A stretch of 64,000 nucleotides of DNA from Nemertoderma westbladi (lineage: Eukaryota; Animalia; Xenacoelomorpha): contig JAUCBJ010007250.1 in NCBI GenBank assembly GCA_032718475.1, positions 1-64,000 on the forward strand. Reading direction: 5' to 3'. Shown one piece after another: positions 1-51,034 of this stretch. Within the stretch, counting starts at the first letter, position 1. The number at the start of each line of letters is the position of its first letter. The position numbers were made by a program, and so were the translations under genes. The notes under the pieces are model-generated. The model did not search any database, had not been told where the DNA came from, and saw only the letters and a list, made by a program, of their open reading frames with translations.

Positions 1-1198
1 TACCTAAGTCTGTGCTAGTTAGCTGTCTTTTAACAGCTGGGGGCAAATCAGGCAATTTGCGACGGTAATATGTTTTTCTACGCCTACTTAGATGAGATCT
101 ATTTCCTCCGCCTTCAGGATCGGTAGTATCGCCTTCCTCCGAGGATGTGTATCCCTGGCGCTTGGGAGTAGATTTTCTCATCATCTGCATTTGATTAGCA
201 GTAAACTGTTTATTTATACTGTCTTGTGTCTCTTGCAGATTTTCCAACTCCAGTTGGGTAGTCTGCTCAGATGCTCTCCTTTCTGCTTCTGCCACTGCCT
301 TTGCTGCTTTTCTTTCTGCTTCTGCATCTGCCGCCGCTGCCTTTCTTTCTGCTTCTGCATCTGCCGCAGCCGCCGCCTTTGCTGCTTTTCTTTCTGCTTC
401 TGCATCTGCCGCCGCTGCCGTTGCTGCTAATCTTTCTGCTTCTACTTCTGCCGCCGCTGCCTTCTCTGCTTCTGCATCTGCCATAGCCGCCGCCTTTTGT
501 TCCTCTATTCTTTTTTTCTTTATTTGTTCTTCTTGGACTCTAACGAGGCGGAGTTTTTCATCACATTTAGCTTGTTCTGCAGCTAACATTTCCGCATCGA
601 TTGCGTCCAACACAAGCTTGGTTCCTTCACTATTAGGGCGAAGTCCAGACAGTCGTCTCCTCAACTCTTCGTCTCCTATGAATCGCTGATAGTCTGACAG
701 ATATATGTCAATGGCGTCTCTAGTTCGCGGCTTCTCTGCTGCTGTTAATTCGCTTTCCACTTCGCTTTCCACCTCGCTTTCCACTTGAGAAGAAGTGGCG
801 TCGGTTGATTCTTCATAGGTTGGCCGCTCATCATAAACCATATCCGCCATCTTCGCTCCGCGTTCGGGCGTCCGCTCCACAGTATCCGAACTACTGGAGC
901 TATCGGGCCGCTGAGAACTAGGTTCTTGGCTAGGAGGTTGCTGCTGTTTTATAGCTTCTTCTTGATCCCGCTTGACTTGGGCCCGAGTGCCTATGGCAGA
1001 CCAACGGCGCTTCACTAACTTCGCAAAATGCGAAATCGCTTCTACCAACCTAGGTTCTGATACAACCACTGCAGGGGTTGCCCTTCTTACAGTATGAGGG
1101 GTTTCAGACCTCGGTCTGGGATTCTCTACACTTTGATCTGAGAAACAGTCTGTTGTTTCTAGGAGACTATCTGACAGAGTTTGCCTTGTGTCAGCCAT
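1..1198 (-). pseudogene. gag: Decayed gag N-terminus of element C with AEAERKAAAA-type coiled-coil repeats
   Basis: Homologous to 37430-39339 of B, including DAIDIYLSDYQRFIGD. No long ORF survives, and there is an internal deletion relative to B. Confidence 0.8.
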
Positions 1199-2544
1199 GT
1201 TTGTTTACACAGTTGAATGCCTACGGCTACAAATACAGTCAAAGTAAGTCTAGTAATTCAGTATCACCGTTAGCCTAATAATTAATTGCCGATACTGCTG
1301 CTCAGTGTAGCGTGATATATATATAATATATTAGAATACCGGTATGCTTATAATATATATATAAGTATGATTACAGACTAGATTTGTCACAGAGTACCGG
1401 TATATAAATTTAGCACAAATATATATAAATATATAATAGGCCTATCGTGAATACCGGTATACAGCTGACACTTATAGTATATATAAGTATAATTATTACA
1501 GACTAGAATTAATTACAGAATACCGGTATGATTTCAGCTTAAATTTATAGAATAAATATAATAAGCCTATTGTAAATACCGGTATGTCAATTATTTTAGA
1601 ATAATTGAATTTCTGAATATTTTAGGGTTACTTGGTTACTTTAACTTACTCTGTTACCGTTATTTAAGCAGTAGTCCAACTGATTTTGAGACCTAGTTGT
1701 TGTATGACAGGCCTACTATTTATAAATCGTTTGATTTGATTTATAATATTTATATACCCGTTTATATGGGTTTTTGTCAATATTTGAAATAAATGTTATT
1801 ATTTCTGGGGGAGTCACTACACAGAAGCTGAACGCCTCTCAGTGAAGTGCTATTTATTTGACACTAAAACTGATAATTCTAATTTACCTAAGTTACTTAA
1901 TTACTACAAATTACTTACGATACGGGTGAGATTAATTCTCTAGTTAAACACAACAAAATATTACGTACGAAATTTTTAGGGTAATTTTACAGGAAGTCTA
2001 CAAACCAGTCCAACAAAGGGTTAGATTTCTGGTTATTACAAAGGACAGGGTACTACGGTATTTAAATAATAAGTAGTAGTAAATATATTGTACTGTCCAG
2101 ATAGGAAAATACCACCGCCTGACGACCTATAACCGTATCGCTATAGGTACTACGTTATGTATCACGGATTGTTCCTACCCAGAAGCTAATAGAGCTAACG
2201 AATGTGCCTATCAACCACTTTACAACACAAATATACTGCCTACACTAATTACTTCGGAAAGCACTGTACACTAAACCCTAAATTAGGTACAAGTACCGGT
2301 ATAACAAATAATCAGTAGTTAAATATACTTGAACAGTTAAAAGAACCACGGCATCTGCTGGAGTGACCGAAGCACAAAGTCGTCAGTCTTTACCTACGCC
2401 AAGCAGCCCTGATGTAGTACCGGGGTTAGTTTAACTATAACGGTATGTATAACAAGCACAATTACTGTAGGAATAAACTTGGGGACATGAATGTTGCGAA
2501 TAATCGCATAAACTCTGAATAATAAATATTACGCTACCCGTACA

Positions 2545-3085
2545 GAATACTCAAACAAATACAAACCAAACGCTGGCAGACTACTATTAAGCCTAAACAA
2601 ACTACAGTATGTGCAGATTCTGAAACTGTTAGTTAGTATGCGTTCTAACACGGTAGTACGACTTACTCTTTAAGAGGGGATTGACCTTACCGCTTATGGC
2701 TGCCCCAACTTACTAACGGCACTTGATCAGACCAACTCTACACACGCAGCAATCCCTTCAGACCTAAAAATAGCTAGACAACAATCCAGCCTACAAATAT
2801 TTAAGTAATAACTATTACGGTACCTGAACAGACCACACAAACAAACTCAGGCTAAAACACTGGCAGACTACGATCAAGCCTAGATAAACTACAGTATATG
2901 CAGACTCTGAAACTGTTAGTTAGTATGCGTTCTAACACGGTAGTACGACTTATTCTTTAAGAGGGGATTGACCTTACCGCATATGGCTGCCCCAACTTAC
3001 TAACGGCACTTTATCAGACAAACTCTACACACGCCGTAATCTCTCCAAACTCAACAACAGTCAGACAGCAGCTCAGCCTACAATT
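2545..3085. repeat. ~300-bp tandem duplication in the leader of element C
   Basis: CTGAAACTGTTAGTTAGTATGCGTTCTAACACGGTAGTACGAC occurs at ~2620 and ~2907. B has a single copy (~40690-40960). Confidence 0.8.
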
Positions 3086-3363
3086 ATCTGAACAATCTGA
3101 GCAGGGTCACACGCCTTCTGCTCAATATTAGCCTACTAGAAAATAAAACCGACAGAAATAGGTAAAATCTCAATAAAAATTCAGGGCTGCAGTCCCTGAT
3201 TAAGTACTAAGACCTACCAGTATACAATAATCAAATCGAATAATACTAAATGTACTTGTACAGCAGTACCGGTACCGGTTATGACAGTTAGGCCTACTGA
3301 CCTACAGAAGTACCGGTTCTTTGCAACCCTATTGCCTACTGCAATAAGATTATAAACTGTTAC

Positions 3364-4512
3364 TGTTCGCGCTTTTGAAGACCTTTAGCAGTTTAACCCG
3401 CCAAAATTTATATGTCTTTTAGTTAATTAAAACACCTTTAGCATACGACAATATTTTATGCTAATACGCAAAACATTAGCCGAAGGCAGCCCATGCGCGA
3501 TCATTCACCCGATGGATCTACACCCGGGAGGCTGAATTCGGATGCTTAAATTTTATTATTGCAGTGTAAGGTTGCAGTGTAAACTTACTGTATTATTCGA
3601 TAGATCGTTAATGATTAATTTCTGACAGATATTATTGGCTTTCGGGAAATATTAACAGTTCCTTTAGGACGTGGCGCTCTATCTATTTAAACAGAACTAG
3701 GACTTATACTAAACGCAACGATACTGCTTATGATTAAAGTATAAAGCGTATTCTTTAGGAAATACTTTGTTACCAATCACAATCATACACACTATTCTGC
3801 CGACCGTCAGTATATTTGATCACACATAAAGAGAGCAGTAATTGACTCATGTAGTGTCTGCTAAATAACATTAGATTCAATACACACCACATTAATATAA
3901 ATCGCAATTGTTATGTATAGCCGGTCTCTCTAACCTGTAGTGTATCAAGAAAATTGGGAATTTGGGTGATTTATCCGTATTATCCAAAGAGCAATATTTC
4001 CATCAACAAATAGGTACAATTAATAACTGACGGTAAATAACAGTACAAACAATATGATTAATGCAGTTAAATTAAGTGAGATAGTGAGTTCGTTCGATTA
4101 GTGAGATTAGTTTGGTAACAGTTTATACTTTCGATAATTTAAGCAGTTTTACTAGAGTTTCTAGAGCCGGTGTTTCTGGCTTAGACAGCAATAACAACAA
4201 AGTATCAAGTAAAAACAGTAAGACTGAACACTCTCCTTATGATCGGCCGAAAAGCTACACGTCGACAGGAAAAATCGCTCTGATTGGCTCAAGCCAAACA
4301 AAGAACCATGCGTCCAATGGCTGTTTCCATGTCAGCAACCAGCTGTTAGATGTCGTAATATGAATCATCACGGCTAAGCTGTGAAAGGTAGTTGGTGCAT
4401 TGCAGGTTTTTTGCCTTACCATGTCCGCCAAAACACGTATATAGCAGAATGACTTTTATGTCCGTTAAAACACCTGTAACGGTACCTTGCGGGCGAGGGG
4501 AATATATATACA
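3364..4512 (-). repeat. 5' LTR of element C
   Basis: Clear similarity to the B LTR (for example AAATATTAACAGTTCCTTTAGGACGTGGCGCT). TG...CA termini on the minus strand. Outer end approximate. Confidence 0.75.
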
Positions 4513-5218
4513 GTTAGAGAACCTTTTTAGAGTATTCCAGCGCCTGGGGGGAAACTGGATTGCGAAGCAAAAGGGGCCAGTTATATCCCACAGAAGCTTT
4601 TACAAAGTGCGTTTGCTAGAGTAGTGGAGGTCATGTCAGATATTGAATGTAGAGGAGGTAAGAGTCTTGGTAGAATTTTCTGCATTGCTACAATATCTAA
4701 AAGTTCGTGAGGGAAACTAGGCCGTTTGCTATGGTTACAAGGCTCATTGTTAATGTCTATTGCGCCGGATAACATCGTTAGGAGACTTACATCAATTTTG
4801 TATGAGATAGACAATGGGTTATGATCTGATATAGGTGGTTGATTTTGCAAGATATTAAGTTTCAGTTTGTCCAAGTCAGTATTGGAATTGCAAAGGCACC
4901 AATCCAGTTGTATCTGCAGAGACCCTCTCCAAAAGGTAATACCTCCATCGTTAGTAATATTCTTATGAACTAAGTGATTAATAGGTATCAGACTCATTTC
5001 CTTGATTATGTTGAGCAATGATTGGTTGAGCTTGATTATGTTTGTGTTTATTTTTTTATCTGGGTTTTGCGTAAATTTATAGGATGGACACACATCATTC
5101 AAATTTCCAAGTCTCGAGTTTAGGTCTCCTGTAATTATGATGGGAAGGTTGTTGTAACTTTTCAAAATAAGCTGGCCGGTGAGGGAAGCAAAGTAGTGTT
5201 CTGTAAAGTACGGGGAGT
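4513..5218 (-). pseudogene. LINE APE-endonuclease fragment (host of element B)
   Basis: ORF 4581-5165 has the APE motifs IITGDLNSR, QLDWCL and ISDHNPL. It continues across the B insertion at 42064-42170 (YIPP-YDSPYF-like, one frameshift) and probably at 44163-44357 (SWNING, IIFLRETH). Confidence 0.8.
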
Positions 5219-5223
5219 CATAT

Positions 5224-6327
5224 TGTTCGCGCTTTTAGACCTTTAGCAGTTTAACCTGCCAATTTTAGTTGTCTTCTTGTTTATAAATCGACTTTAGCCT
5301 AGACCAATTATTTAATGTACTGAAGTTACATCCGCCGAAGCCAGTCTGTGCGCGATCATTCACCCACAGTTAAGGGAGACTGGATTCGGGTGCTTTGAAG
5401 TTATTGCGGTGCAGACCTACTGTATTATTCGATTGATAGTTACTATATAATCTCTGACAAATATATTTACTTTCGGGGAAATATTAACAGTTCCTTTAGG
5501 ACGTGGCGCTTTAAGTATAAAAACAGAGTTATGACTTATACTAATCACAACTAGATGGCTACTGAGTTTCGTAAATAGCGCATTCTTTAGGAGATGCTTT
5601 ATTATCTGTCACACTACTTCACACGACTTCACACTACTGCACACTGATCTGCCGACCGTCACTGAATTTGATCATATATAAGGAAGATCGCAACTGACAC
5701 TTGTAGGGATTATGAAATAGCATTTAATTCACACAAAAACCACTATAATTTAAGTCGCAGTTGCTACCGGTAACCTGTTCCTCTCACCTTCAGTAATCAA
5801 GAAGATTGGGGGTTTTATGATTATTCATCGGTATTCTCCAAATATATCAGCAATATATATCCATATAACAACAATTAATAACAGAAGCAAATAATGCGGT
5901 GAACAATCAGTATGTGTTACGTAATGCATTGAGTTGTGTTATTCAGTATGTATGCAGGATAATAGATTTACGTTCTTGTAATCAAAGCCATCAGATGTTT
6001 AGGCCAAAGTCTGAAACTTCCAAAACAGAAGCACAGAAGAATTCTAAGCCGGTTATCTGGCTCAGAAAGGTAAACAAAGACCGTAATGCATTGCGCAGTT
6101 TTCCATAGGCCCCTGTTCAACATAAAATGAAAATCGCTCTGATTGGCTGAGCAGAACAAAGAGGTTCCACGTCTACAGGAAATCAGCTGACAGATTTCGT
6201 CATCTGAGCTCAAATCTTTTAGAGTATTATGCGCATTGCGGCAAAAATGACTTGTTATGTCCGCTAAAGCACCTACACTGTGCATTGCGGGGAAAAATGA
6301 CTTGTTATGTCCGCAAAAGCTTTTACA
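5224..6327 (-). repeat. 3' LTR of element B (1104 bp)
   Basis: Direct repeat of 41229-42058 with about 9 substitutions counted by eye. 6021-6296 is absent from the other LTR. Confidence 0.92.
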
Positions 6328-6405
6328 CCGCTCCCAGAAAATGGGATTTAATTCTATAAAATATAAAAAATCACAGTTTCTAAAATATAAAAATACTCTA
6401 AACAG

Positions 6406-7385
6406 TTAGTCCTTCTTACGTGAACGGCGTTTACGAAGTTTTTTGAGGCTAGCAAGAGTCCTTTTCTCTTTGGGGTGAGCTACTTTACTAGGAGGGCTAT
6501 AACTCTTGGGTGAGGGGTGCAATACAATTGCATCGGAAGGTTTAGGGTTACAGTCGGTGTATCCGCCGGTCGAGGTACCCGGTTGATCGATATCAACCTC
6601 AGTGGAACGAGGTCGAACAACCTTCAGAGCGCGTTTCAAGACAGCAGCTCTTACTGGTCCCTGACGAGTCGTCTGCACGAGAGCGGTAGGCGGACCGTGA
6701 GTAGTGCAAAATTTCCTCGGTTTGATGGTTCTTTCTAACTCGCATTCTCGGGCTCTATATTCATAGGGTCGTCTATGAACTTCCTGTAGTTCTGGATGTG
6801 AGTTGATGAACAAGTCACCATATTCTGGATTTTGACGGATGAAGTTGATCAAGTTATAGGAATTAAGGTCATTAGGATTGATGTTCCTGAGATACTTGCG
6901 AACAAATTTGGTCGAAATATTCTCGCCAATGCGTTTCATTAGCTCGTAGCTCCGTGTACGAGATTTTTGCTCAACCGAAGCAAAGAGATACGGGTGAAAT
7001 GCATAAACTCCTTCATAGGCACGTCCAGGGTAGTATCGATGACGTGACTCGCAGTGGAGATCCGCGTTATCTTCCCAGGCTCGAATGTAGCGCAGGGCAA
7101 CCATTTCATCTACACTTTCCAGATCTCGGTTGAAAGGGCAATCAAAACTTGCGTGTCCTTTAAACTGGCAATGATGGCATTGAGTCATAAATTGAGGGCA
7201 GACTGCGAAGATGTGTAAGTTATTGAGTCTACAATACGCACAATAGATCTCCATTGTAGGTTGGTCTTGGAAGTAGGAGCAGGGTACGTTGGAGTCCACC
7301 GGGGTGAAGTGGTCTCGAGATGCGCATAATCGGCAACGTTTCCTAGAAACATAATTGGCATGCCGATAATCGTATGCAGTGAGAC
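6406..7385 (-). pseudogene. C-terminal part of element B ORF2 (zinc knuckles), split off by insertion of A
   Basis: Removing A and one TSD restores one frame: WYQGPQCL|TAYDYRHANYVSRKRCRLCASRDH. CAYC..H..C and CHHCQFKGHASFDC align with the A ORF2 knuckles, and WEDNADLH aligns with WEDLADEH. Confidence 0.88.
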
Positions 7386-7511
7386 TATAGAATTATATTC
7401 CCTAAATGCCGTGGATTTTCAAAATTTTATTTTATTCGAATTAACTTTGTAAAGATTGCTTTGAGTTCTCATTAGTATTGGTTCTATCTATTATGCATCT
7501 ATCGGTCAAGT

Positions 7512-7598
7512 GGTTCAGTAGCTCAGTCGGTAGAGCGTTGGAAATTATATGTGTAGTAGGTATCGAGTTCGAATCCTAATAAGTGCGAATTATTTTTT
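7512..7598 (+). promoter_or_regulatory. tRNA-derived Pol III module in LTR A (second copy 24539-24625)
   Basis: A-box/D-arm TAGCTCAGTCGGTAGAGC (7519-7536), B-box GAGTTCGAATCC (7565-7576) and T6 run (7593-7598). Anticodon, T and acceptor stems do not pair. Confidence 0.7.
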
Positions 7599-7655
7599 GT
7601 GCAGAATTTCAACTCATTTAAATTAACCGCTACAAATTAATTGCATTTGTCTGTA

Positions 7656-7920
7656 CCAATGAGACCGTAGTTATTTGATTGTAACCAATGTCGTGCAAGT
7701 TATATATTAGCTGGACCAATAGCTATCTTTAAAACCTTGTTAGAATCTATAGAACAATCGAGAATTTTCTCGATTGATTGCGGCACAAATTTAGTATATA
7801 AAGGTGCGATTTCGTTCATTAGTATACTTACACAAACTAATTCAATCCATCATTCACTTTCTGTCTTATTTCAGATTACATTGTTTATTGTATAATAGTT
7901 ATTATATCTTTTGTAATAAA
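7656..7920 (+). promoter_or_regulatory. Candidate Pol II promoter and polyadenylation signal of LTR A
   Basis: CCAAT at 7656, 7685 and 7716 (about 30-nt spacing), inverted repeat CAATCGAGAATTTTCTCGATTG at 7755-7776, TATATAAA at 7795-7802, AATAAA at 7915-7920. Confidence 0.6.
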
Positions 7921-9306
7921 AGTCAGAAATACTAGTCACATCTCAGCCCTTTTCTATCTGTTTTACTATGGTTTCACTACGGTGAACAAACTCAGGGACA
8001 GGATGGCCGGCTAGAGATCGGGCCGCAGCAATGAACGGGAACATCACGGGAATGTAGACGAGAGACAACCCGCAATACCATCTTAGAGTTATTCGCCCAT
8101 CGCCTGAAAGGTTAGACAGCGTTCGATCCTTGCTACCTAAGTGTAAGACCAAAAGATCAAAGGTAGACGTAGTGACGCGCTGTAAGCCCAAAATTACATC
8201 ATAAGGACTGTACTGTCTTGATTCAGGAAAACCCACAGTAGACCTTCACATTCCTACGGGGGGAGGGAGAGAGAGCAGATACTAGTATGCAGATAGGACG
8301 TAGGCACACCGGTACAAGGCATACACATTGGTTAGGGTGCAGCAAACTGTACGCTTAACTCTTGCTAAGTACAGGTGTGTGTGCGACTATTTGCCGTACA
8401 ACAGTGTCCATTACATCAGAACTTGTAGGCTAGGGGGTTGCTGTGTTTTCACCTGAATTGGGATTGTACCGTTCAGGCGGTAGGGCAGTTTACGCTAGGC
8501 GCAAATAAATTGAGGCTATCAGGGATATACTAACATCTACCGTGTCCCCGCCAACGCCCTAATAGGAAGTTACCCGGACTACCTGGGTGACTAAAATTCT
8601 AGATAGGAGCCAGGATAGCTATTAGTACCCGTACGCCTACAGTAGTAAACTAACACATCTCTTCTTTGTATCAGGGACCTGGTACCTAAAATTGCCGAAT
8701 TCTGGGCGTAGTATTAACCTTATGCCTGAATTTGAGTCCTGGAAATACGCAAGAGGGGAAGGAACCTTATCATTCGTGAGTATTGGACCTACAAGTTATA
8801 AAATTAGAATATTCGTAAAATGCACACCGTACCCAGTAATTATATATGTGAAGGAGCAAAACTGTTTTTTGACCGTTCAGAATTAACACACGCGCGTTAG
8901 AAATTATTTACACCTCGAAATATATAAAATTAACTTAGTCCGTACTGTGCTTTGCCCGCTAGTTAGACATCTCCAAATCTGCTCTATACCTAGCTAGCGT
9001 CCCTTTGCCCAACCATATAAATCACACCGCGGCAAAGTATACGAGCCTCTTAGTCCGTCAGTGAGTCAGCCTGATTTTAGGATTCGCTGCGCGGGATTTT
9101 GTTTTATCGAAGTTTGTCTGCTCGTAGACTGTTTTCTGCCTCACCGGTTATAAGAGATCGATACTGCAATATATTCGCTTACTTTGGGTTTACTGTTTTG
9201 GTGAGAAGGTCGGATTTATGATTTGATTTACAAACTTTACAGTAGGATATTGCAGGTATTGTTACCGTCTCTTCCGATAGTAGGAATAGGCGTATCTCTT
9301 CAATTA

Positions 9307-9317
9307 GTAGGAATGTG
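9307..9317 (+). promoter_or_regulatory. Non-tRNA primer-binding position of A, complementary to LTR 8247-8257
   Basis: GTAGGAATGTG directly follows the LTR. Its reverse complement CACATTCCTAC lies at 8247-8257 and 25274-25284. No TGG. Confidence 0.75.
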
Positions 9318-10114
9318 TTTTACTGAACTACGGTTCGGTAGGACTAAAGTTATTTGAAAATTTTGTATTTTGAGGTAAAAATTTGTATTTGATTAGCTAA
9401 GTGCTAATTTTTTGAAATAAAATTTGATTTGAACCGCGTGTGAAGTATTTTGGAATTGAATACCGGTGTTTAAAAGGGTTTAAATACCATATTGTACCGG
9501 TACAAAATTTTCGTAAAGTAAAACCTAACTCTTTTGTTTTTTCAGGATTCAGAACTCATTTCTAGGCTGTAACGGGAGCAAGACCGTGTTTAGCAAGTTT
9601 GGGAGATAGATAACTCAACAACTTTGGTTGGGAAAATCGCGTTTCGTCCGCAACGTTAAAAACGGAAAGGTTCACGTTCGGTTTGTATCTGGGAATCTGT
9701 TTTTCTGGAGAATTATTGGAGTGGGTGAGTTCGAAAAGTTGCATAAATAAGTTAGGCATTACCGTATTAGTTAAAATTATTGTGGGTTCCACTGTCTCAA
9801 GTATTTATGCATTCCATATGATTTCTTTGTTCATTGCTGAATTAGTCCGTATTATTGTATTTAATTTACCCTTCGATAACGCATATCGTTATCCGATTTA
9901 TTTGTTATAAAATTGGCCGCTAGGCTAATTTTATTATATACTTATTCCGTGACATTTATTTGCTGTAAAATTGGCCGTTTAGGCTAATTTTATCCATCTG
10001 CTATAAGATCGGCCGGTAGGCTAATTTTATAAGACTGTAATTAGTACCGTTTAGATAAAAATACAGTAAACTCGATACTTTGACACTCACTTCACTTGAC
10101 TTACAACTACTGAA

Positions 10115-13100
10115 ATGAGTGACAAACAAGACTATACGAAGAATACACAAACCGACTATGACTCATGTGACGCGGATAAGTCAGCAGCGGAAGAACCACA
10201 GGGGAAGACTCGCGAGCCTACCGAACCTACACCGTGTGCGTCACCAGTACATCCAACGGGAGTACCGGATGCCGTAGTACGAGGCGACGGCAGGACCGAG
10301 GACTTTCTAACTGTTCCGCAACCTAGATATAGGGAAACGGAAATGGTAAGTTCAGCAGGAAGCACAGAAAGTGTGGTTAGAAGCGTCGGTGGTTACATGG
10401 CGCATATTACCAGGAGTATTGGAGAAGGCCAACGCATATTAGACGGGTTGACCGCTCCGATGTCTCGATTCGAGTTCTACACCCTCCAGGTTAGAGTACA
10501 GAGTAAAGTATATAAGTCCGTAGATAATCTAGTTGGCCTACAAGATCTAGCTAGACAGAGACAGGACATGGATACTCAACTTAGAATCCTCGAGAAACTA
10601 ATGATCACTAGAGAGAAACTGATTCAGTTTAAGTCGACGATTAGACAGATACAACAGGAACAAGCGGACCAGTTGCTAGGTGAGTCAGTTTCGGACGAAT
10701 TATTACAGCCCGAGGAAGAACAGGAACTGTACCGACTGGATGGACAATTGAAACACCTGACGGATCACTTGCGCATGTGCGGCGAAGACGTCGGGGATTG
10801 GGAAACCGTGCCGGAGGCTACGAGGGAAACTTCACTCGCACAAATCGAACTGGCACCGGGAACACTAAATCAATCACTGGTGAGTATTCGTAGCGAAATC
10901 TGCGAAGGAAGTATGGTCACGTCAGAAGTCGCTCGACAACAGCAAGAATTCTGCCGACAACGACAAGAAATGGAAGAACAAGCTCAACTTCTAGTGATGC
11001 AAGCAGCAGTAGAGGAAGAGAAGCTACGCGTTGCGAATATAGTAAGAATATCTCATCTACAGGAACAAGCTGAATTAGAAGCAGCTGAAGTAGAAAGGTT
11101 AGAGTTAGACATTGCCCGACAAGCGGCAGCGGCAGCGGCCGAGTTAGAGCGACAAAACGCGGCGGCCGAGTTAGAGCGACAAAACGCAGCGGCCGAACTG
11201 GAGCGACAAACGGCAGCGGCAGCGGCGGAATTAAAACGAGAAAGGTTAGTCTCAGAAGCACGGGCCGAAATGAGAACACGGCAAATAAAAGCTCAATCTG
11301 CTATACGACAAGCAGAATTTGAGGCGCAACAACGACAAACGGAACAACGAGAGAAGACAGCTAAACTTCATTTCGAACTTGAGAAGAAGGCGAGAGAATT
11401 AGCGAACGCTGAGGAAGATCTGGATCAAAGGGCCCGCGATCGATCGATGAGATCTCGTGACGGACATGATTTGGACCAGTTAGAGGTAAGACATCGCCAA
11501 ATTCAGGAACGGAAGAAGGAAGGAAGCGTAGGAGCACCCGGACGGGAACGACAATTAGTAAAGGACGTGTGTCAACGATTCCCACAGGTAACTCATATGT
11601 TTGCACCGGTTACGACTAAGGAACCTGTTTCGATTGCGGGTAGTAGTAACATTTCTCCTATCCATGGTGCGACGGAACACAGGTTTGTTATTCCGGACGA
11701 GTTTACACCGCCAAGAGCAACGTCGTCGCCTATTCCGAAAGTCAAGGTAAGTAACCCACCGATTACGGATCGTAGTAGTTTATTGACCGGACCTGCACTA
11801 CTGACGACAAAACAGGTGAGTCCACCGTCGACACCTAAACCCGTTACACACTACGCTTACCCAATGACGTTTCGACCAACAAGGCCTTTGGATTCAAATG
11901 CTGTCACTCGACCACCGGTTCAGTTTACATCGCAATCTACGACTTCGAGGAAGACTTGTGAGCCTACCGAACAACGGAGAACAGTGGATACGCGACCGGT
12001 TCAGTTTACATCGCAATCTACGACTTCGAGGAAGACTTGTGAGCCTACCGAACAACGGAGAACAGTGGATACGCGACCGGTTCAGTTTACATCGCAATCT
12101 ACGACTTCGAGGAAGACTTGTGAGCCTACCGAACAACGGAGAACAGTGGATACGCGACCGGTTCAGTTTACATCGCAATCTACGACTTCGAGGAAGACTT
12201 GTGAGCCTACCGAACAACGGAGAACAGTGGATACGCGACCGGTTCAGTTTACATCGCAATCTACGACTTCGAGGAAGACTTGTGAGCCTACCGAACAACG
12301 GAGAACAGTGGATACGCGACCGGTTCAGTTTACATCGCAATCTACGACTTCGAGGAAGACTTGTGAGCCTACCGAACAACGGAGAACAGTGGATACGCGA
12401 CCGGTTCAGTTTACATCGCAATCTACGACTTCGAGGAAGACTTGTGAGCCTACCGAACAACGAAAGCGAGACGATGTTCCGAAACGAACCGTTAGAATTA
12501 GTACGACGCAACGGACGCGAGCACGTCGACCACCATATCCAGATGATAGTAGTACTTCGAGCGAATCGGATTACCCGAAACGCGAGGTATTTAGAACAGG
12601 GGCGGCCGATGAATACAAACGCGAGCGTTCAGACAACTCCTTTGCAGACAATCCTCCACAGAATACACCAACACAGAAGGCGTTACAACCAACGGACGCA
12701 ATTAGTACACAACAGTTCGCCGACATCCTGCGACCAGTTGTCAATAAGTTGGCTCAAATCGAGGAACGTCTGGAGGAAGGTTACACCGACAGTTCGAGAA
12801 ACTCCGAATTCGAACCCAATAAACACCCGAAGGAACCACAAAGACCGGTACCTTCAAACCCCACATCGTATCAAAGAAAAACGCCAAGAAGGGAGAACAA
12901 CAACCCGGTTGCCAACCAAGGACGCGAAACTTTGAACGTTGCCGAGGAGATAGCGAAATTCGCAGCCAGACAGGGATTGCCGGTACAACAACCACCGAAG
13001 TTTTCCGGTAGCTCAAAACACTGGCATACCTTCGTAGACTATATCGAATCCCAGATCGCCGTGTGCGCCTTTACATCACGGGAGAAGTTCAATTACCTGC

Positions 13101-16100
13101 TCCAAATGTTGTCAGGAGAACCTAAACGTTTGGCGGAGACCTTCGTTGGTGTACCGGACGCTTTCGAACTAGCGTACGATCGTTTGACTTCGATATACGG
13201 AGGTACAGTGAGTATGGCCAGGTCAGTAATAGAGGAACTCTGTAAGGGAGGGGCTATCACTAAACCCGTCGACTTACTAAAACTGGCTGACGAGATTAAG
13301 AACGCTATCACTACCTTAAGATCAATTGGACAACTTGATTACGGGAATACCCCTACAGTTCTATTAAAGATAATAGGACGACTCCACCATCGACTTCGTC
13401 GGGAGTGGAGGAAGGTCGAATACCAGCGAGAGGAGCGAGGAGGATTCCTAAAATTAGAAGATGTGTACCTTTTAATATCCAGGGAGGCGGTAGTTGAAAC
13501 TCGATCTAACTATACCGACCAGCACATCGTGGCAGAAGGGATCACACTGCCATCCTCCAACCGACAAAAACCCCAGACAACATCCACAAAGACGGCCACT
13601 TACGCCACACCGACGGAATCACGACAATTCTCAGACGGTAATAGAGTATCTGCGCCCATTGGAACGAAACAGACGAGACAGCAACTCAGCGCCGACTTCA
13701 ACGGCTGCCAATACTGCGAACATTTAGGTAAGCGGTATATTGGTCACAAGTTACGAGGTTGTCGACAATTTCGCGAGTTGAACTCAGAAGAACGACGGCT
13801 GCAGATACGGCCACTGGACTCTTGTTGGCGGTGTACGCGACACGGACACGTCCGTAAGGATTGCCCAAATACCGACACTTGTCCATCCTGTGGACGCAAC
13901 CACGACGGTCTGCTCCACACAGACAGCCACACGCCGACGAAACGCTTCGCCAGGGAACACCCGGAAGCAGCAGCGAGATGTGATGCGGCCTACCGAAAAC
14001 GAGAATCGAAAACGACTCCAACATTCGTGACCCATATAGAGGATTGCTTTTCAGAACAATCCGGATCGTCGGACGAAGAATCAGACGACGACGAATATTC
14101 TAATGGAGACGAACAACCGTCAATCGCGCTCCTGACCACTGACCAACTGAAGGGATTCAGTGTAATCCCGATTAAAGTTACTGGCACAAAGGGGAGCAAA
14201 AGAATCTACGCGATTCTAGACTCAGCCTCATCTCACAGTTACGTGGATGAAAAGATAGCTGACGTCGTAACGGATCTCAGACAAGGTAAACACGTCAGTT
14301 ATACAGTAAGTAGTATGCACGGCCAGCGTGCAATACCAGTGACACGAGTTAAGTTGGACTTAGACTCTCTTCTTCCAAAATCGCAACACAGCGAGAGGGA
14401 GAGGTCTTTGTTGCCCTTTAGAGATCTAACCTTTGCGGCCACGAAGGACTTTAGTAACCTACTAGGTCCAGTGCCGGAACAATCTCTGGAGGACCGTAAG
14501 TATTTCAGACACCTTGGTGTACCCGAATGTCCTGTCAATTATAGATCGGTAGCAATGCTGATCGGGACGGACCAATTCAACCTACATCAGGTGTGGGAAA
14601 CCAGACCATCGGCAGTTGTAGCGGGAAACGCATACGCCTGCAGAACGCCGATAGGGTGGTATACTCGAGCGCCTGTGCGCACACTAGACGTAAGTGACGA
14701 GGAAGACGACGTACAGAGTACATGTAGTTTATTGACTACAAACTCAATTCATTCCTTTTCACACGACGTGAACCATACTACGCTACAGTCGACAAAACAT
14801 GACAGACGTGTAACTAGTATGATAAGTCACAAGGAGCAGCTAACCCACAAGGTGAGTTTAGAACTTGGGGAGAAGACGAATCAGCTAGAGATTCCATCGA
14901 CGACAGATGATAGGCTTGCGAGTCTACCTACCCCAACAACCTCAACAGTGCCCGTCGATATCGACGATGACGCGTTGAAAATTCATCAGTTGGAACAAGC
15001 CGCCTTGGACAAAGAATTAACGGAGAAGACTATCAGGTGGTTAGAACAAGATACAGCTGAACCTGGTAGCTACGAACCTTGTATGTCGGAACAGGAGAAA
15101 CAATCTCTGAAGATCATGGAGGATACTATCCGACAGACGGAGGACGGACATTACGAGGTGGGTATGTTATGGCGTAGCCAAAGTCCTAAACTTATAAACA
15201 ACTACCCACTGGCTTTAAGACGTCTACACTCAATACGGCAACGTCTATTAAAGGACGAGAAAGCCCATCTGCAGTACAACACTCAGATGGAGACGTATTT
15301 GACGAAGGGATACGCTATCCGAATGACTAACCCGGAGCAAGTGACCGACCAGACATACTACCTGCCACATCACTATGTGAGACATCCCGACAAACCAGAC
15401 AAAGTACGCGTAGTCAATGACTGTGCGGCTCTGTTTGAGGGAATGTCCCTCAATAGTGAGTTGATGGATGGACCGAACATGAATAATTATCTTATGGGGG
15501 TGATTATGCGCTTCCGTCAGCGTCAAGTAGCCTTTACTTGCGACGTTGAAGCGATGTTTCACCAAGTGAAAGCGTTAGAGCGAGACAGAGACAGTTTGCG
15601 GTTTCTCTGGTATCCGGAAGGGGACTTAAGTCTACCACCAGCGACTTACCAAATGCAAGTTCGCGTTTTCGGTGCCAGAGACAGCCCAAATTGTACGATG
15701 TACGCCTTGAAGCAAGCCGCTAGAGATCAGAAACATTTGTATGACCCAGAGATAATTAGAATTGTAGAACGTGACTTTTACGTTGATGACGGTTTACAAA
15801 GTTGCGACACAGTAGAACGTGCTACAACAGTAGCACATCAATTACGGGACTGCTTGGCGGGCGGAGGTTTTAACCTCACCAAATTCGCCTCAAACAGTGC
15901 CGAATTAGTTGACTCATTCGGAACTACTGAGCGTGGAGGTGGTGACATAGACCTAGAGTTCGAACCACTACCGACGACTAAGGTGTTGGGGCTCTTTTGG
16001 GACCCAAACACAGACAACTTTCGAGTGAAGGTGAGACTGGACAGTCAAGGAAACACACTGACCAAGAGATCATGCTTGTCAAAGTTGAGCCGATTGTTCG

Positions 16101-19100
16101 ACCCGTTAGGATTCATCAGTCCAGTGATACTGCAAGCCCGCATTTATATGCGCAGTATATGGAAGGATGGACTAACGTGGGACGAGCCGATCTCATCAGA
16201 CCAAGTGGACTTATGGAAGACCTGGGAGGCGGAATTGTCTTCGCTAGAGGATTATTTCATACCCAGGGTTTACTTTCCATTACAGAGTACATTTCCTGAC
16301 AACTTAGAACTACACTGTTTTTCTGACGCCAGTGACAACGGTTTTGGTGTGGCAGCGTATTTGCGCAGACAAGTAGAATCAGACGAGTTCGATGTTTCGC
16401 TCATTACTTCCAAGGCTAAGACCATGCCTACTAAGTATATGACGACACCACGAGCCGAGCTACAAGCCGCGACCCTGTCAACCACCATCGTGAACCTCAT
16501 ACAGACAGAACTACAGTCGAGTTTACAGATATTTTATTGGACTGACGCGACGTTGGTTTTATTTTACATAAACAACGACACACTCGAATTCAAGACATTC
16601 GTAGCTAACCGTCGCGCAGAGATTCTAGACCGTTCGATAAAAGAGGATTGGCGACATTGTCCCGGACCACAAAACCCAGCTGATATTGCGTCGCGAGGAA
16701 TGATGCCTGAGGAATTCTGTAAACCGGAGAACAAAGAGTTTTGGCAACACGGACCCCAGTTCTTGCAGAAATCGACACAAGATTGGCCTCCGCTATACGA
16801 CAACAAGTCCAACACCATTCCTAAGGACGCCGAAATCAAGAAACCAAAAAAGGGGAAGACAAAGAAAAGGACAACGGCGGCGAAACTAAAGAAAAAACCG
16901 AAGGCGAAATGGAAGGATATAACTTCAAAGGTCAAGAGAGGAAGACTTGCGAGCCTTTCTACACCAGACATATCGCCAGACGGTCGACCAGACATATCGC
17001 CAGACGGTCAACCAGACACTTTACTAGACAGTCAACCAGACATTTTGCCAGACATATCACAAAATGTTCCACCAGACGCTAGTAACACACTGACAAACAG
17101 TAAAGCCGCAGTTTCTCTATTGGAGCGGCCTTCTATTGACAAACAACTAGATACGTTACCAGACGTATCGCCAGACACATTACTAGACAGTCGACTAGAC
17201 ACTAGTAATGTATTGACTAACGATAAAGCCGCAGTTTCCCTATTGGAGCGGCCTTGTATTGACAAACTACCAATTTTGACACACTTGAGCAACCATAAGC
17301 ACGGTGAAACCTCATGTATTACAGATGTGGGTAGTACCTACGCTAATGTAAATACAGGTGTTACTCTGCGCTCAAGAGACATACCGAACTTGCAACCTAT
17401 AGTGAGACCTGGGATTAATGTCGGCAGGAAAATAAGTTTACCGAAACCTGCTGACCCCATAGAGTTCAAACCACCATTAACGATCGACTTACAAAGTACC
17501 GACAATCAAGGTAAGAAGACGAAGAAGGACAAATTACTTGTAGACCCGGACGGATCAACAGTCAACAAGGGAATACTTACCGGCGGACCCGTGGGCCCTT
17601 CTAGTAATTCAAAACCTTCCAAAATCTCCATTGACTTACCTGATGACGTCACAAATACTTACGTCGACCGAATTGTAAACTTAACAGACTCTTGGTCGAA
17701 CGCTTGCCGAAAATTAGCGTGGATTGTACGTTTCGTACAATACGTTAAAGGCAAACGTGACTTTACACGTCGACTTACATTGGCTGAGATTGACAGGTGT
17801 GAGATTAAATTAATTCGCCATTACCAACTGCGATATTTCGCGCGCGAATTCACATCCATAAATCAAGGTCAACCAATCAAGTCGTCACCGATACTGAGTT
17901 GGAGTCCGATTATTTATAATGGCTTAATTTGTCATAAATCTCGGCTTCAAAACATTGACTTTAACACAAACTTTAGGTACCCAATAATAATACCGCAACA
18001 CCACGAACTACAACGTGCAATGATACTGGACGCACATTTACATCTGAAACACGCTGGAAGACACCACTGTCTTTCCTACTTACGTACTAGATTTGTATTA
18101 ATTAGACCCAGTAAAGCATTGAGTTCAGTGACACGTACGTGTATTATTTGTAAAAAGGTACATTCTAGAATAGGTACCCAAGAAATGAGTGAACTATCAC
18201 AAGCACGACTTCAAGCATTCAGACCACCTTTTACAGAGACTGGAATTGATTGCTTTGGTCCCATACATACGAAACGTGGACGTATACTAGTAAAACGCTG
18301 GGGACTGATTTTCACATGTATGTCCAGTAGGGCAGTTCACATTGAACGTGTGATGGATCTTTCCACCAACGCGTTTATACTAGCACTGCGGCGATTTATC
18401 GCTAGACGCGGACTAGTAAAATGCTTGTACTCAGACCAAGGGACAAACTTTGTTGGTGCTCGGAATGAGATTGCTAGAGCCTTTAAGAGATTAGATCATG
18501 ATCAAATCTCGAACGAACTGCAACCTCACAAGATTGTTTGGAAGTTTAATCCTCCAGATAGTCCTTGGAGAGGCGGAGTCTGGGAGAGATTGATTAGATC
18601 TATCAAAACGGCCATGGCAAAGGTCATTCCAGTAAACCACATATTAACAGACGACCAACTGACAACATTGTTTGTTGAAATCGAGGCAATACTAAATACT
18701 AGACCAATAGTATTAGTACCCGATGACAAACAATCTCAGTTCGCTTTAACACCAGCACACCTGCTTATGCAGGCACCGACCACATTGACGCCGATTTCCA
18801 TTCCAATGGAAAGTGATAGTTACGGTAGAAAAGCGTGGAAAATCACGCAACTACTGGCTAACAAATTCTGGGAAATATGGCAAAACCATTATTTGCCCTC
18901 TATTTCTGCCAGAACAACATGGTACAATAACACCCGCGCATTAAAGCCGGGAGATCACGTGCTGTTGGCAGAAGTGAATCTAAAAAGACGCTTCTGGATA
19001 ACAGGTGTCATTTTAGCCACACATCCATCTATGGATGGAGTGACAAGAACTGTGACGGTACGAACAATTGACGGTCGTACAGTAGACAGACCAACTCAAC

Positions 19101-19171
19101 GTCTCGTACTTCTTGAAGAGACTCGTAACGAGTCTGGAGACTACAAATCTCCACCTAATACTAGTAAATAA
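10115..19171 (+). CDS. gag-pol: BEL/Pao Gag-Pol polyprotein, 3018 aa (Gag, Zn knuckles, aspartic protease, RT, RNase H, integrase)
   Basis: Gag PPKFSG..W..F; CWRCTRHGHVRKDC and CPSCGRNH; protease ILDSAS; RT YLPHH, DVEAMFHQV, FYVDD; RNase H HCFSDAS, PRAEL, WTDA, NPADIASRG; integrase H..H..CIIC, GIDCFGP, SDQGTNF, WERLI; domain order PR-RT-RH-IN. Confidence 0.96.
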   Translation: MSDKQDYTKNTQTDYDSCDADKSAAEEPQGKTREPTEPTPCASPVHPTGVPDAVVRGDGRTEDFLTVPQPRYRETEMVSSAGSTESVVRSVGGYMAHITRSIGEGQRILDGLTAPMSRFEFYTLQVRVQSKVYKSVDNLVGLQDLARQRQDMDTQLRILEKLMITREKLIQFKSTIRQIQQEQADQLLGESVSDELLQPEEEQELYRLDGQLKHLTDHLRMCGEDVGDWETVPEATRETSLAQIELAPGTLNQSLVSIRSEICEGSMVTSEVARQQQEFCRQRQEMEEQAQLLVMQAAVEEEKLRVANIVRISHLQEQAELEAAEVERLELDIARQAAAAAAELERQNAAAELERQNAAAELERQTAAAAAELKRERLVSEARAEMRTRQIKAQSAIRQAEFEAQQRQTEQREKTAKLHFELEKKARELANAEEDLDQRARDRSMRSRDGHDLDQLEVRHRQIQERKKEGSVGAPGRERQLVKDVCQRFPQVTHMFAPVTTKEPVSIAGSSNISPIHGATEHRFVIPDEFTPPRATSSPIPKVKVSNPPITDRSSLLTGPALLTTKQVSPPSTPKPVTHYAYPMTFRPTRPLDSNAVTRPPVQFTSQSTTSRKTCEPTEQRRTVDTRPVQFTSQSTTSRKTCEPTEQRRTVDTRPVQFTSQSTTSRKTCEPTEQRRTVDTRPVQFTSQSTTSRKTCEPTEQRRTVDTRPVQFTSQSTTSRKTCEPTEQRRTVDTRPVQFTSQSTTSRKTCEPTEQRRTVDTRPVQFTSQSTTSRKTCEPTEQRKRDDVPKRTVRISTTQRTRARRPPYPDDSSTSSESDYPKREVFRTGAADEYKRERSDNSFADNPPQNTPTQKALQPTDAISTQQFADILRPVVNKLAQIEERLEEGYTDSSRNSEFEPNKHPKEPQRPVPSNPTSYQRKTPRRENNNPVANQGRETLNVAEEIAKFAARQGLPVQQPPKFSGSSKHWHTFVDYIESQIAVCAFTSREKFNYLLQMLSGEPKRLAETFVGVPDAFELAYDRLTSIYGGTVSMARSVIEELCKGGAITKPVDLLKLADEIKNAITTLRSIGQLDYGNTPTVLLKIIGRLHHRLRREWRKVEYQREERGGFLKLEDVYLLISREAVVETRSNYTDQHIVAEGITLPSSNRQKPQTTSTKTATYATPTESRQFSDGNRVSAPIGTKQTRQQLSADFNGCQYCEHLGKRYIGHKLRGCRQFRELNSEERRLQIRPLDSCWRCTRHGHVRKDCPNTDTCPSCGRNHDGLLHTDSHTPTKRFAREHPEAAARCDAAYRKRESKTTPTFVTHIEDCFSEQSGSSDEESDDDEYSNGDEQPSIALLTTDQLKGFSVIPIKVTGTKGSKRIYAILDSASSHSYVDEKIADVVTDLRQGKHVSYTVSSMHGQRAIPVTRVKLDLDSLLPKSQHSERERSLLPFRDLTFAATKDFSNLLGPVPEQSLEDRKYFRHLGVPECPVNYRSVAMLIGTDQFNLHQVWETRPSAVVAGNAYACRTPIGWYTRAPVRTLDVSDEEDDVQSTCSLLTTNSIHSFSHDVNHTTLQSTKHDRRVTSMISHKEQLTHKVSLELGEKTNQLEIPSTTDDRLASLPTPTTSTVPVDIDDDALKIHQLEQAALDKELTEKTIRWLEQDTAEPGSYEPCMSEQEKQSLKIMEDTIRQTEDGHYEVGMLWRSQSPKLINNYPLALRRLHSIRQRLLKDEKAHLQYNTQMETYLTKGYAIRMTNPEQVTDQTYYLPHHYVRHPDKPDKVRVVNDCAALFEGMSLNSELMDGPNMNNYLMGVIMRFRQRQVAFTCDVEAMFHQVKALERDRDSLRFLWYPEGDLSLPPATYQMQVRVFGARDSPNCTMYALKQAARDQKHLYDPEIIRIVERDFYVDDGLQSCDTVERATTVAHQLRDCLAGGGFNLTKFASNSAELVDSFGTTERGGGDIDLEFEPLPTTKVLGLFWDPNTDNFRVKVRLDSQGNTLTKRSCLSKLSRLFDPLGFISPVILQARIYMRSIWKDGLTWDEPISSDQVDLWKTWEAELSSLEDYFIPRVYFPLQSTFPDNLELHCFSDASDNGFGVAAYLRRQVESDEFDVSLITSKAKTMPTKYMTTPRAELQAATLSTTIVNLIQTELQSSLQIFYWTDATLVLFYINNDTLEFKTFVANRRAEILDRSIKEDWRHCPGPQNPADIASRGMMPEEFCKPENKEFWQHGPQFLQKSTQDWPPLYDNKSNTIPKDAEIKKPKKGKTKKRTTAAKLKKKPKAKWKDITSKVKRGRLASLSTPDISPDGRPDISPDGQPDTLLDSQPDILPDISQNVPPDASNTLTNSKAAVSLLERPSIDKQLDTLPDVSPDTLLDSRLDTSNVLTNDKAAVSLLERPCIDKLPILTHLSNHKHGETSCITDVGSTYANVNTGVTLRSRDIPNLQPIVRPGINVGRKISLPKPADPIEFKPPLTIDLQSTDNQGKKTKKDKLLVDPDGSTVNKGILTGGPVGPSSNSKPSKISIDLPDDVTNTYVDRIVNLTDSWSNACRKLAWIVRFVQYVKGKRDFTRRLTLAEIDRCEIKLIRHYQLRYFAREFTSINQGQPIKSSPILSWSPIIYNGLICHKSRLQNIDFNTNFRYPIIIPQHHELQRAMILDAHLHLKHAGRHHCLSYLRTRFVLIRPSKALSSVTRTCIICKKVHSRIGTQEMSELSQARLQAFRPPFTETGIDCFGPIHTKRGRILVKRWGLIFTCMSSRAVHIERVMDLSTNAFILALRRFIARRGLVKCLYSDQGTNFVGARNEIARAFKRLDHDQISNELQPHKIVWKFNPPDSPWRGGVWERLIRSIKTAMAKVIPVNHILTDDQLTTLFVEIEAILNTRPIVLVPDDKQSQFALTPAHLLMQAPTTLTPISIPMESDSYGRKAWKITQLLANKFWEIWQNHYLPSISARTTWYNNTRALKPGDHVLLAEVNLKRRFWITGVILATHPSMDGVTRTVTVRTIDGRTVDRPTQRLVLLEETRNESGDYKSPPNTSK
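11915..12462 (+). repeat. Perfect 81-bp tandem repeat (6 full + 1 partial copy) in gag of A
   Basis: Encodes PVQFTSQSTTSRKTCEPTEQRRTVDTR repeats. Units appear identical. Confidence 0.95.
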
Positions 19172-19724
19172 TTAGGAGTTTACAAATAGACTTCCACGTA
19201 CCTGTACACCGTAGTAAGGACAGCGGTAGAATTCCATTGTCTTTATATGTGAACATTGAGGGTAGTACCCTTATGTGTCACATAGGAGCGGGATTTGTAG
19301 GTATAAGAAATGGAATTCTACTTGGAACTCACAATATTGAGACATTTTCGAAATTTTAGACAATCCATTTGGATTTGAAAAATTTTAAAAATTTTCTCCA
19401 GTGAATAGATTTCAGGGTACAGTCGGGTGGAACTTAAAATTAGAGAAACAAGAGAGGAAGACTTGCGAGCCTTTCTTAAAATTTTTAATTAAATTTTACA
19501 CGGTCTTGTTTCAATAAGTTACGTCAAAATAGACTCACCTATATTTATTACTAATTCTTGATTGCTTATTTTCTGATAATAGTTTGGGATCAAAAGGTGA
19601 GTATTTTAGACTCACGGCCAGTTTAGCCCAAATTCGTTTTTACTTCGGCAAAAAATTTTAGATAAGAAGCAGCGTGTCATTAAAGAAACCCTAGATCTTA
19701 GGCTATGGGTAGGAGGTTAGAGCG

Positions 19725-23558: not shown

Positions 23559-23599
23559 AAGGGAGGGCAAGGGTGGACGGAAGACTCGTGGGCCTTTCT

Positions 23600-24400
23600 T
23601 ATGATTTGTGATTTATTTTGAATTATATGTTTTATATTTAGAAAACTTATGCAATTTGTATTGTTCCGAATTTATGAAATTTAGAAAGTTTATATTTAGA
23701 AGGAACTTATATTTGAAAGATTTATGTTTCATATTTGAGATGCAAAAGGTTTATATTATTTTAAACTTATGCAGTTTATATTTATATTTAAGTAAAGACT
23801 TATATTTAGTAAGATTTATATTTAGTAAGAATTTATATTTTATATTTACGTGATTATTTCGAACTTATGCAATTTATATCATTCCGAACTTATGCAATTT
23901 ATATTGTTCCGGATATTATGCAATTTATAAGCAGTATTTGTATTTACAGTGAAATAGAAAGTTTTATAGATAGAAAATTTTGTGCTCAGAAAGACTCATA
24001 TTTGTAATTATTCCAAACTTATGCAATCTACATTTAGGTACGAAAGTATTTGTAATTACTTGAATTTATGCAATATTTGAGATGCAATAGTAGATGGAAG
24101 ACTCGCGAGCCTTTCTTATTGTTTTCATTTATTTGTATTTGTAATTGTTTGAATTTATGCAATATCTGAGATGCAATAGATTTATATTGGTGAATTTAAT
24201 TTAGATTTATATTGTACTTACTTAGTAAAGCCTTAACTACGTAAAGTTTGAATTTGTAATTATTTTTGTATCGAATCATTACGTAAAAAGGAAGTATTGT
24301 TTGAAATTTAATTGTAAATATGTAAGTACGCCCTAAGTATTCTATAGTTTGATTGATTATTGGTGAAAACCGTATATTTTATGCACGATAATATCCTGTT
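23600..24400 (+). repeat. AT-rich 3' UTR of A with degenerate short repeats
   Basis: Recurrent ACTTATGCAATTT(A/G)TAT and GAATTTATGCAATAT units. Confidence 0.6.
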
Positions 24401-24412
24401 TTCATGGAGCGG

Positions 24413-29522: not shown

Positions 29523-30039
29523 GATGGTCAAAGGGTTTAACAGATTTATTTTGCGTTTTACGCTACTGTTAAATGGACATCATTCTACTATATGTATTAT
29601 TTAATATACGGTATGAGAGCAATATTGTAAGAAGCAATGTCAGTAAGAAGAGGCAAGTCGTTTCCAAGGTCTACCCAGAGCTTGGTTTAGCAGAGACACA
29701 AGGATCTGAACTTTGCATTCCTAATACTCTACTTACCAATAATACTTGAGTATAGTAGGAGCTTTATTGTACTTTAATAAGTACAGACATTTCATCTTAC
29801 TGTAGTCACATATTTATAATATAATACGGACAGTAAGGAAAGAGAAAAAGAATTATTTCTCGCCGTCGCACTAAATATATAATATATAAGTAATTAAGTA
29901 ATAAACGCGAATATATATTGCACTAATCTACTAGATAATCGCTAAAATAACATTCTACTAAATAAAATTAAAGAAAACGATTATAATAAAATTACATAAT
30001 AATACATACATAAATATAAAATAATAAAAACAAATATAA

Positions 30040-30812: not shown

Positions 30813-30876
30813 CAAAAAAAAACCGTTCGTTTAAAAAATATAAAATAATGTAGTCACATACCCACTCCAGACGCTG

Positions 30877-50927: not shown

Positions 50928-51034
50928 TAGGTTGCTGATATGGTTCTGTTTTATATACACATTACACAGTATAACTTTTGCGCTCATATACTCTACAGTG
51001 AAACTCTTCATTGATCATAAACTTAACATTATCA

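Follow-up and report, generated by a model that had tools for sequence, protein, structure and literature searches.

Candidate Tf1-like self-priming in BEL/Pao-lineage elements whose PBSs complement their own LTRs

BEL/Pao elements are described as carrying a PBS of 18 nt that pairs with the 3' end of tRNA-Arg or tRNA-Gly, and their replication is regarded as poorly understood (PMC8742986). In the window analyzed here, that is, the whole 64-kb stretch of DNA, an element designated C bears directly after its 5' LTR a 13-nt PBS whose exact complement lies within that same LTR, which raises the question of whether the primer of such an element may be a piece of its own transcript. A precedent is provided by Tf1 and Tf2, in which a primer at the 5' end of the RNA anneals to the PBS and is released by RT cleavage (PMC4600332, PMC5341516, bioRxiv 2022.12.06.519325); self-priming is also described for Tf1/Sushi, Tcn1 and TAR elements (PMC6317226). 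Other background sources were PMC3601003, PMC554778 and PMC3286476 (Ty3/gypsy, uninformative), and the terms 'primer', 'PBS' and 'tRNA' are absent from PMC3118150, PMC2774666 and PMC6238403. No report of BEL/Pao self-priming was found in the literature searched, prior mention in subscription journals, Repbase notes or supplements being possible, and an element-encoded tRNA-like primer in Caenorhabditis Cer elements was not confirmed in that literature.

Three elements of the BEL/Pao lineage are present in the window, namely B, A, which is nested in B, and C, of which the window holds the 5' part only, the other end lying outside. Their features are collected in Table 1 together with those of a control element, D.

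Table 1. Positions of features of elements A, B, C and D in the window.
Feature	Position	Strand	Remarks
C PBS, 13 nt, sense GTAACAGTTTATA	3351-3363	minus	Adjoins 5' LTR; first 30 nt without TGG
C candidate self-primer, exact PBS complement	4115-4127	minus	LTR position 478-490; 751 nt before LTR end
C 5' LTR, 1241 bp, TGT...ACA	3364-4604	minus	Homologous to B LTR
C gag-side ORF start, off window edge	2-1204	minus	Homologous to B gag-side region
Predicted hairpin directly after C PBS	3326-3350	minus	As stable in 13/500 shuffles
Segment right after C primer end	4063-4114	minus	Short internal duplications; common to few sister sequences
Element B	5224-42058	minus	TSD CATAT at 42059-42063 and 5219-5223
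B PBS, 11 nt, sense ATAATAGATTT	41218-41228	minus	Adjoins 5' LTR
B candidate self-primer, AAATCTATTAT, in 5' LTR	41964-41974	minus	3' LTR counterpart at 5959-5969
B 5' LTR, 830 bp	41229-42058	minus	274 nt shorter than 3' LTR
B 3' LTR, 1104 bp	5224-6327	minus	9 differences vs 5' LTR over 797 nt
B RT/RNase H/integrase ORF	31218-34343	minus	PF05380, PF17921
Element A	7386-26333	plus	Young; open gag-pol; TSD GAGAC
A PBS, 11 nt, GTAGGAATGTG	9307-9317	plus	Adjoins 5' LTR
A candidate self-primer, CACATTCCTAC	8247-8257	plus	1049 nt before LTR end; 3' LTR copy at 25274-25284
A 5' LTR, 1921 bp, termini TA...TA	7386-9306	plus	Nested in B
A 3' LTR	24413-26333	plus	3 differences vs 5' LTR
A gag-pol ORF, 3023 aa	10100-19171	plus	PF03564, PF05380, PF17921, PF18701
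A extra 3' ORF, 1281 aa	19713-23558	plus	Weak zinc-knuckle matches and 3'-5' exonuclease-like region (lead only)
Control element D, Ty3/gypsy-type	53716-58933	minus	TGG 3 nt after LTR

On the forward strand, TATAAACTGTTAC occupies 3351-3363 and GTAACAGTTTATA 4115-4127, with the LTR end running from 3364, and each of the two 13-mers occurs only once in the window. An earlier note on this DNA had described C as giving an independent 13-nt replicate of the self-complementary PBS, abutting the LTR end and with its exact reverse complement at 4115-4127; the complement and both positions were confirmed, C is indeed an independent case, with A adding a third and more distant one, and the match was reached in 0/5000 dinucleotide shuffles of the full C LTR (3364-4604). 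That full LTR was used for this contiguous-match shuffle test only, and the C LTR end was taken as 4472, not 4604, in the B/C site alignments, the motif scan and the spliced-primer test. The C LTR starts with TGTAAAAGC, like the B LTR. On the sense (minus) strand, the PBS follows the terminal ACA of the LTR with a spacer of 0, and pairing reaches the LTR edge without extending a single pair beyond it, a geometry that fits the need of a primer because the base immediately following the LTR is paired with the primer 3' end. Edge-anchored exact matches of 11 nt were found in both B and A (5/5000 and 2/5000 dinucleotide shuffles of their own LTRs, respectively), and all 35 of the 35 duplex pairs in the three elements are Watson-Crick, with no G-U pair and a spacer of 0. 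The three elements have three different PBS sequences, and TGG is absent within 30 nt after the LTR in each (3/3). Control element D was without a self match, its best being 5 nt and reached in 228/400 shuffles.

The loop between primer and PBS is long (735-1050 nt). When the RNA was made to start at the site, the duplex was present in the minimum-energy fold of all three elements (13/13 pairs in C, 10/11 in B and 10/11 in A), with a mean pair probability of 0.93 in C, 0.18 in B and 0.93 in A; the B duplex is weak (-8.0 kcal/mol). The predicted duplex was lost in B and C with 50 nt of upstream RNA added, and in all three elements with the longest extension, a behavior of the folding model that may point, weakly, to a transcription start near the site. 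A hairpin is also predicted after the PBS of A (as stable in 1/500 shuffles) and, weakly, after that of B (176/500). Flanking duplexes of the kind that form the Tf1 'pretzel', searched for over 20-25 nt on each side, were no better than shuffles in 6/6 tests (20-99/100).

The B and C LTRs, which the earlier note regarded as homologous, indeed share 70% identity over 713 columns, and the two PBSs are positionally homologous, each placed after an LTR end that is conserved between B and C. Inspection by eye shows two transitions and one indel between the PBSs within their first 11-12 nt, and these differences are mirrored in the LTR sites. The note had read them as compensating changes within one duplex. 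Its observation that the letters of both halves differ in a mirrored way holds, but descent from one ancestral duplex is less secure: the LTR sites of B and C, both situated between the same two conserved anchors, are out of register, free alignment scored above alignment forced at the primer ends in 5/5 scoring schemes, and the forced alignment was no better than shuffles in four of the five (74, 104, 74 and 274 of 300), the fifth giving 6/300. Because the LTR sites are out of register in these alignments, compensating change from one ancestral duplex is a plausible reading only; the offset would mean either that indels moved the site or that a new site took over. The two elements have the same orientation and lie 620 bp apart (4605-5223), on either side of a fragment that resembles a LINE endonuclease by eye and has no Pfam match. 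Late in the C LTR there is a donor-like GTAAGT (3583-3588), with GTAGGT at the aligned place in B (by eye), and splicing from it over the PBS could give rise to a subgenomic RNA.

Contigs of four of the seven listed runs were mapped on C, and those of two runs (X1 and X3) were mapped again on 3335-4150. The C family is abundant, 7350 and 1416 contigs having been mapped in the two runs. Summed depth, which is not copy number, amounted in X1 and X3 to 377,000 and 250,000 at 4119-4146 and to 56,000 and 37,000 at 4091-4118, and did not exceed approximately 5,000 at individual places in 4081-4102; the PBS bin had 270,000 and 116,000. If depth is flat on both sides, approximately 4 of the 28 places in the middle bin are high (3.8 and 3.9), which places the step at around 4115. 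Sister sequences have a block in common that covers the C primer and appears to end at about 4115, the primer 3' end. None of the 22 variants listed at 22% or more, in a list that is not exhaustive and misses a change at 3399 seen in the other mapping, falls at any of the 26 duplex positions. Sister copies of C lacking the match, which the earlier note had named as the contrary case, were thus not encountered, as far as variants of at least 22% in the two runs show. X1 may be the window's own sample, and a gap at 4086-4129 in run X5, which is RNA by guess only, was not used. The most conserved block of the LTR is 3643-3698, where B and C are 92% identical over the 50-nt bin that runs down from 3672; it also has the highest depth in runs X1, X3 and X5.

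Assignment to the BEL/Pao lineage is based on Gag and Pol for A and B. Both carry Gag and Pol domains of the Pao type, ordered PR-RT-RH-IN (PF03564, PF05380, PF17921 and PF18701 in A; PF03564, PF05380 and PF17921 in B), and their RT-RNase H falls among BEL/Pao sequences, with PF05380 present in all but 4 of 86 matches. The RT-RNase H regions of A and B are 45% identical, and the two elements make up a separate clade on a long branch (support 0.998) in a FastTree RT tree of 153 sequences, which was midpoint-rooted and contained no named reference elements, so that a clade such as Sinbad, Suzu or Tas is not assignable. C, without pol in the window and with a gag-side ORF that has no Pfam match of its own, was assigned by DNA homology to B (82% over 2022 columns). 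BEL/Pao-type LTR features were found as well, namely the 5-bp TSDs of A and B and a polypurine tract, GGAGCGG, which precedes the 3' LTR in both. Two traits given by ICTV were not found. None of A, B and C has the 18-nt tRNA-Arg/Gly PBS (no TGG within 30 nt of the LTR), and against the Belpaoviridae genome size of 4.2-10 kb and LTR size of 0.2-1.2 kb (PMC8742986), A measures 18.9 kb and B approximately 17.9 kb without the nested A, with LTRs of 1921, 1104 and 1241 bp in A, B and C, respectively. By protein, and for C via DNA homology, the three elements belong to the BEL/Pao lineage, but they appear to depart from the priming described for it.

Several other structures in the window were recorded. 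The A termini are TA...TA instead of TG...CA, yet the 5-bp TSD and the GGAGCGG tract are as in B. The shortness of the B 5' LTR is due to a deletion upstream of the primer site; at the deletion point (42025/42026), 274 nt are missing, including a CCAAT motif common to C. The coding region of B is split into several ORFs, its gag-side ORF contains an in-frame CTGCCG x60 (poly-Ala) expansion (37796-38160), and pieces of its pol are duplicated downstream of the integrase (30029-30876, 89-91% identity). In the A gag-side ORF, an 81-bp unit is repeated in frame 6.8 times with 100% identity (11914-12462). Motifs resembling the A-box and B-box of a tRNA were seen by eye in the upstream part of the A LTR (~7510-7590) and were called by neither ARAGORN nor Rfam; ARAGORN found no tRNA gene in the window, and Rfam gave for 1-10200 one weak U12 match (E 0.11), taken as chance. 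Elsewhere, a 459-bp tandem array and a MITE-like unit with inverted 15-bp subterminal repeats occupy 42750-43958 and 48074-49170, and a LINE with ORF1 and an endonuclease-RT ORF2 (49536-53743) ends where element D begins.

Relatives outside the window were collected by a metagenome scan that gave 80 loci, of which the 75 of at least 3 kb were searched for terminal repeats; 34 loci with LTR-like repeats were inspected, and the 15 with a fixed LTR end, representing 10 families on the tree, were used. A scan of viral contigs found no relative. TGG begins next to the LTR in none of the 15 loci, and none has a contiguous self match of at least 10 nt (best 9 nt, in L073), an absence that splicing would explain: in 9/10 families (14/15 loci), a PBS complement of 10-15 nt is present only across a GT-AG junction in the LTR, and these spliced matches were reached in 0-3/200 shuffles for each family. 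The predicted LTR introns measure 71-186 nt, and the donor is GTAAGT in 7/9 families. With 3' LTRs, the spliced match was found in L010, L017, L028, L047, L053, L062, L065, L073 and L074 and in sister loci; L078 passes only with the 5' LTR copy, and L041 failed (7 nt, 32/200 shuffles). The allowed spacer had been widened post hoc to 0-7 nt after the LTRs were read, equally for the shuffles; with the spacer restricted to 0, three families had shown a spliced match. When the same test was applied to A, B and C, the best spliced match was only 7-8 nt (107-156/200 shuffles); a spliced primer was rejected for these elements, and their match is the contiguous form.

No duplex, contiguous or spliced, ends more than 6 nt from the LTR edge. 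The primer end conforms to A[C/T]^[C/G] (last two bases ^ next base) in 12/12 families, that is, the nine outside families and A, B and C, and the PBS has different letters in each of the 13 families, 10 of them outside and 3 in the window. Outside families keep the intron in the LTR DNA, which would fit a spliced 5' copy acting as primer and an unspliced 3' copy acting as template. Only 4-9 nt of the first exon pair, and spliced primers may thus carry an unpaired 5' part. In L062, L058 and L078, short tandem units lie right after the primer end and vary in number between sister copies; in L058, the number differs between its two LTRs, and assembly collapse is possible. L045 carries an antisense ORF of approximately 1050 codons (152-3319) upstream of BEL/Pao gag-pol.

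These data suggest, with a probability that we put at roughly 70%, that C, like B and A, is primed in a Tf1-like manner by a piece of its own 5' LTR transcript and without a tRNA. This reading is drawn from the exact edge-anchored complements, the absence of a TGG site and the presence of three sequences in three elements, and it is strengthened by the deep divergence of A and B, the spliced matches in relatives and the precedent of Tf1, Tf2 and Tj1. The transcript would begin at the 5' LTR site or upstream of it, and the site would fold onto the PBS across the long loop. A nuclease, by analogy with Tf1 the RNase H of RT, would then cut just 3' of the site at A[C/T]^[C/G]; strong-stop DNA would extend to the cut and jump to the 3' LTR copy there, and plus-strand synthesis would finally recopy the primer into the PBS. 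Strand transfer at the cut would account for the variability and the many duplications of the segment that follows the primer end, and a PBS recopied from the primer would stay purely Watson-Crick in its match while the letters drift.

Chance recurrence in long, A+T-rich LTRs can be set aside as having practically no probability, being refuted by the 0, 5 and 2 of 5000 shuffles in the three elements together with the nine of 10 outside families. A primer with the same letters might also act in trans, either as an independent short RNA derived from solo or 3' LTRs or as a small RNA cut from LTR transcripts, which would be packaged and anneal to the PBS. Such a primer would have a plentiful source in the two runs with 7350 and 1416 contigs, would need no long loop, would not be affected by the loss of the predicted duplex on upstream extension of the RNA, and could account for the spliced primers of relatives by a separate spliced transcript; however, in each family tested the PBS matches the LTR of the same element, a result that action in cis gives without further assumptions, and the apparent step in conservation at the primer 3' end fits a template 5' end at that place. 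We consider action in trans unlikely. A slightly smaller chance is given to the view that the pairing is a structural switch for packaging, dimerization or translation and that the real primer is a host RNA, for example, an internal fragment of a tRNA. Half-tRNA primers exist in Ty1/copia (PMC6317226), and ICTV gives tRNA priming for the family (PMC8742986), but the PBS letters differ in all 13 families, which one host RNA cannot serve, and the closeness of the duplex end to the LTR edge (6 nt or less), the shared end motif and the lack of G-U pairs in A, B and C argue against a mere switch.

The earlier note had pointed to TATAAA in the C segment and had supposed that the site could lie at or before the transcription start, with the primer coming, unlike in Tf1, from the 3' LTR copy in the RNA. 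The motif is indeed present on the C sense strand (4122-4127); its reading as a TATA box, with the site in U3, is improbable. A CCAAT motif common to B and C lies 160-177 nt upstream, and the variable segment, which would likewise contain a start approximately 30 nt downstream, does not decide the matter. Neither the B site nor the A site, however, contains TATAAA, the first TATAAA of the B LTR being at position 1043 of 1104, and in C the motif is simply the complement of TTTATA in the PBS. Moreover, a cut in the 3' copy would leave the genome without its strand-transfer acceptor, a primer with a long 5' body would set no natural limit of 11-13 nt to the match, and relatives need a spliced primer yet retain the intron in their LTRs, which favors the spliced 5' copy.

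A and B share an extra 3' ORF, homologous pieces of which lie at 26331-27149 and 6406-7392 in B. Its zinc-knuckle matches are below the Pfam cut-offs, and 24/30 of its matches in the Atlas are to clusters with PF01612, a 3'-5' exonuclease, with a score of 0.92 and the family assigned to 50% of members. Sequence searches found no homologue, Pfam and PDB gave no exonuclease match, and a single-sequence structure model was unusable (pLDDT 33); the exonuclease-like assignment, taken from Atlas features, is a lead only. Most outside loci are without such an ORF, which argues that it is not needed for the primer in general.

More tentatively, and at somewhat less than even odds, a broad BEL/Pao branch may have swapped the tRNA for an element-encoded RNA primer, which would be contiguous in A, B and C and put together by the spliceosome across an LTR intron in nine of the 10 outside families. 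Its members would share the cleavage signature A[C/T]^[C/G], and the PBS would be re-templated in each cycle so that the letters and even the position of primer and PBS could change in concert. In the A/B clade, the 3'-5' exonuclease-like protein may trim the primer end. What was tested here is a divergent long-LTR clade with a putative contiguous primer, a predicted spliced form in nine outside families and a common end motif. If this is true, Tf1-style priming reaches the third LTR superfamily and animal elements outside chromoviruses. A self-primer would account for the missing tRNA PBS in annotations of such elements, which would also no longer depend on the supply of tRNA and would escape silencing by tRNA fragments.

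With the Belpaoviridae (PMC8742986), the elements described here share DUF1759 gag, the Pao peptidase and RT-RNase H, a downstream integrase, LTRs, a short polypurine tract and a 5-bp TSD. They differ in having no tRNA PBS, a length of approximately 18-19 kb, LTRs of up to 1.9 kb, TA...TA termini in A, and an extra 3' ORF whose signals are zinc-knuckle and exonuclease-like and not those of env. The bdelloid LTR elements Juno and Vesta carry an ORF3 with a DEDDy exonuclease in the env position (PMC5408684); both cases involve an extra ORF at that position with 3'-5' exonuclease-like features, which here are an Atlas lead only. For the TAR lineage of Ty1/copia and the Tcn1 clade of plants, the same kind of test was used (a complement of at least 10 bp, 0-5 bp after the LTR; PMC6317226); superfamilies and hosts are other than here, and in both studies self-priming is a prediction from sequence. 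Compared with Tf1 and Tf2 of Schizosaccharomyces pombe, Tj1 and the Tf1/sushi group, a tRNA PBS is likewise absent and a short PBS by the 5' LTR complements the element's own LTR. The Tf1/sushi elements are Ty3/gypsy chromoviruses, whereas those studied here are BEL/Pao, with a Pao-type Pol and no chromodomain match; unlike in Tf1, the loop spans 735-1050 nt, the 'pretzel' duplexes are not significant, and the primer of relatives would be formed across a splice junction. The Tf1-type trait itself, a PBS that is the complement of a site in the element's own LTR and ends at the LTR edge, is found in A, B and C alike.
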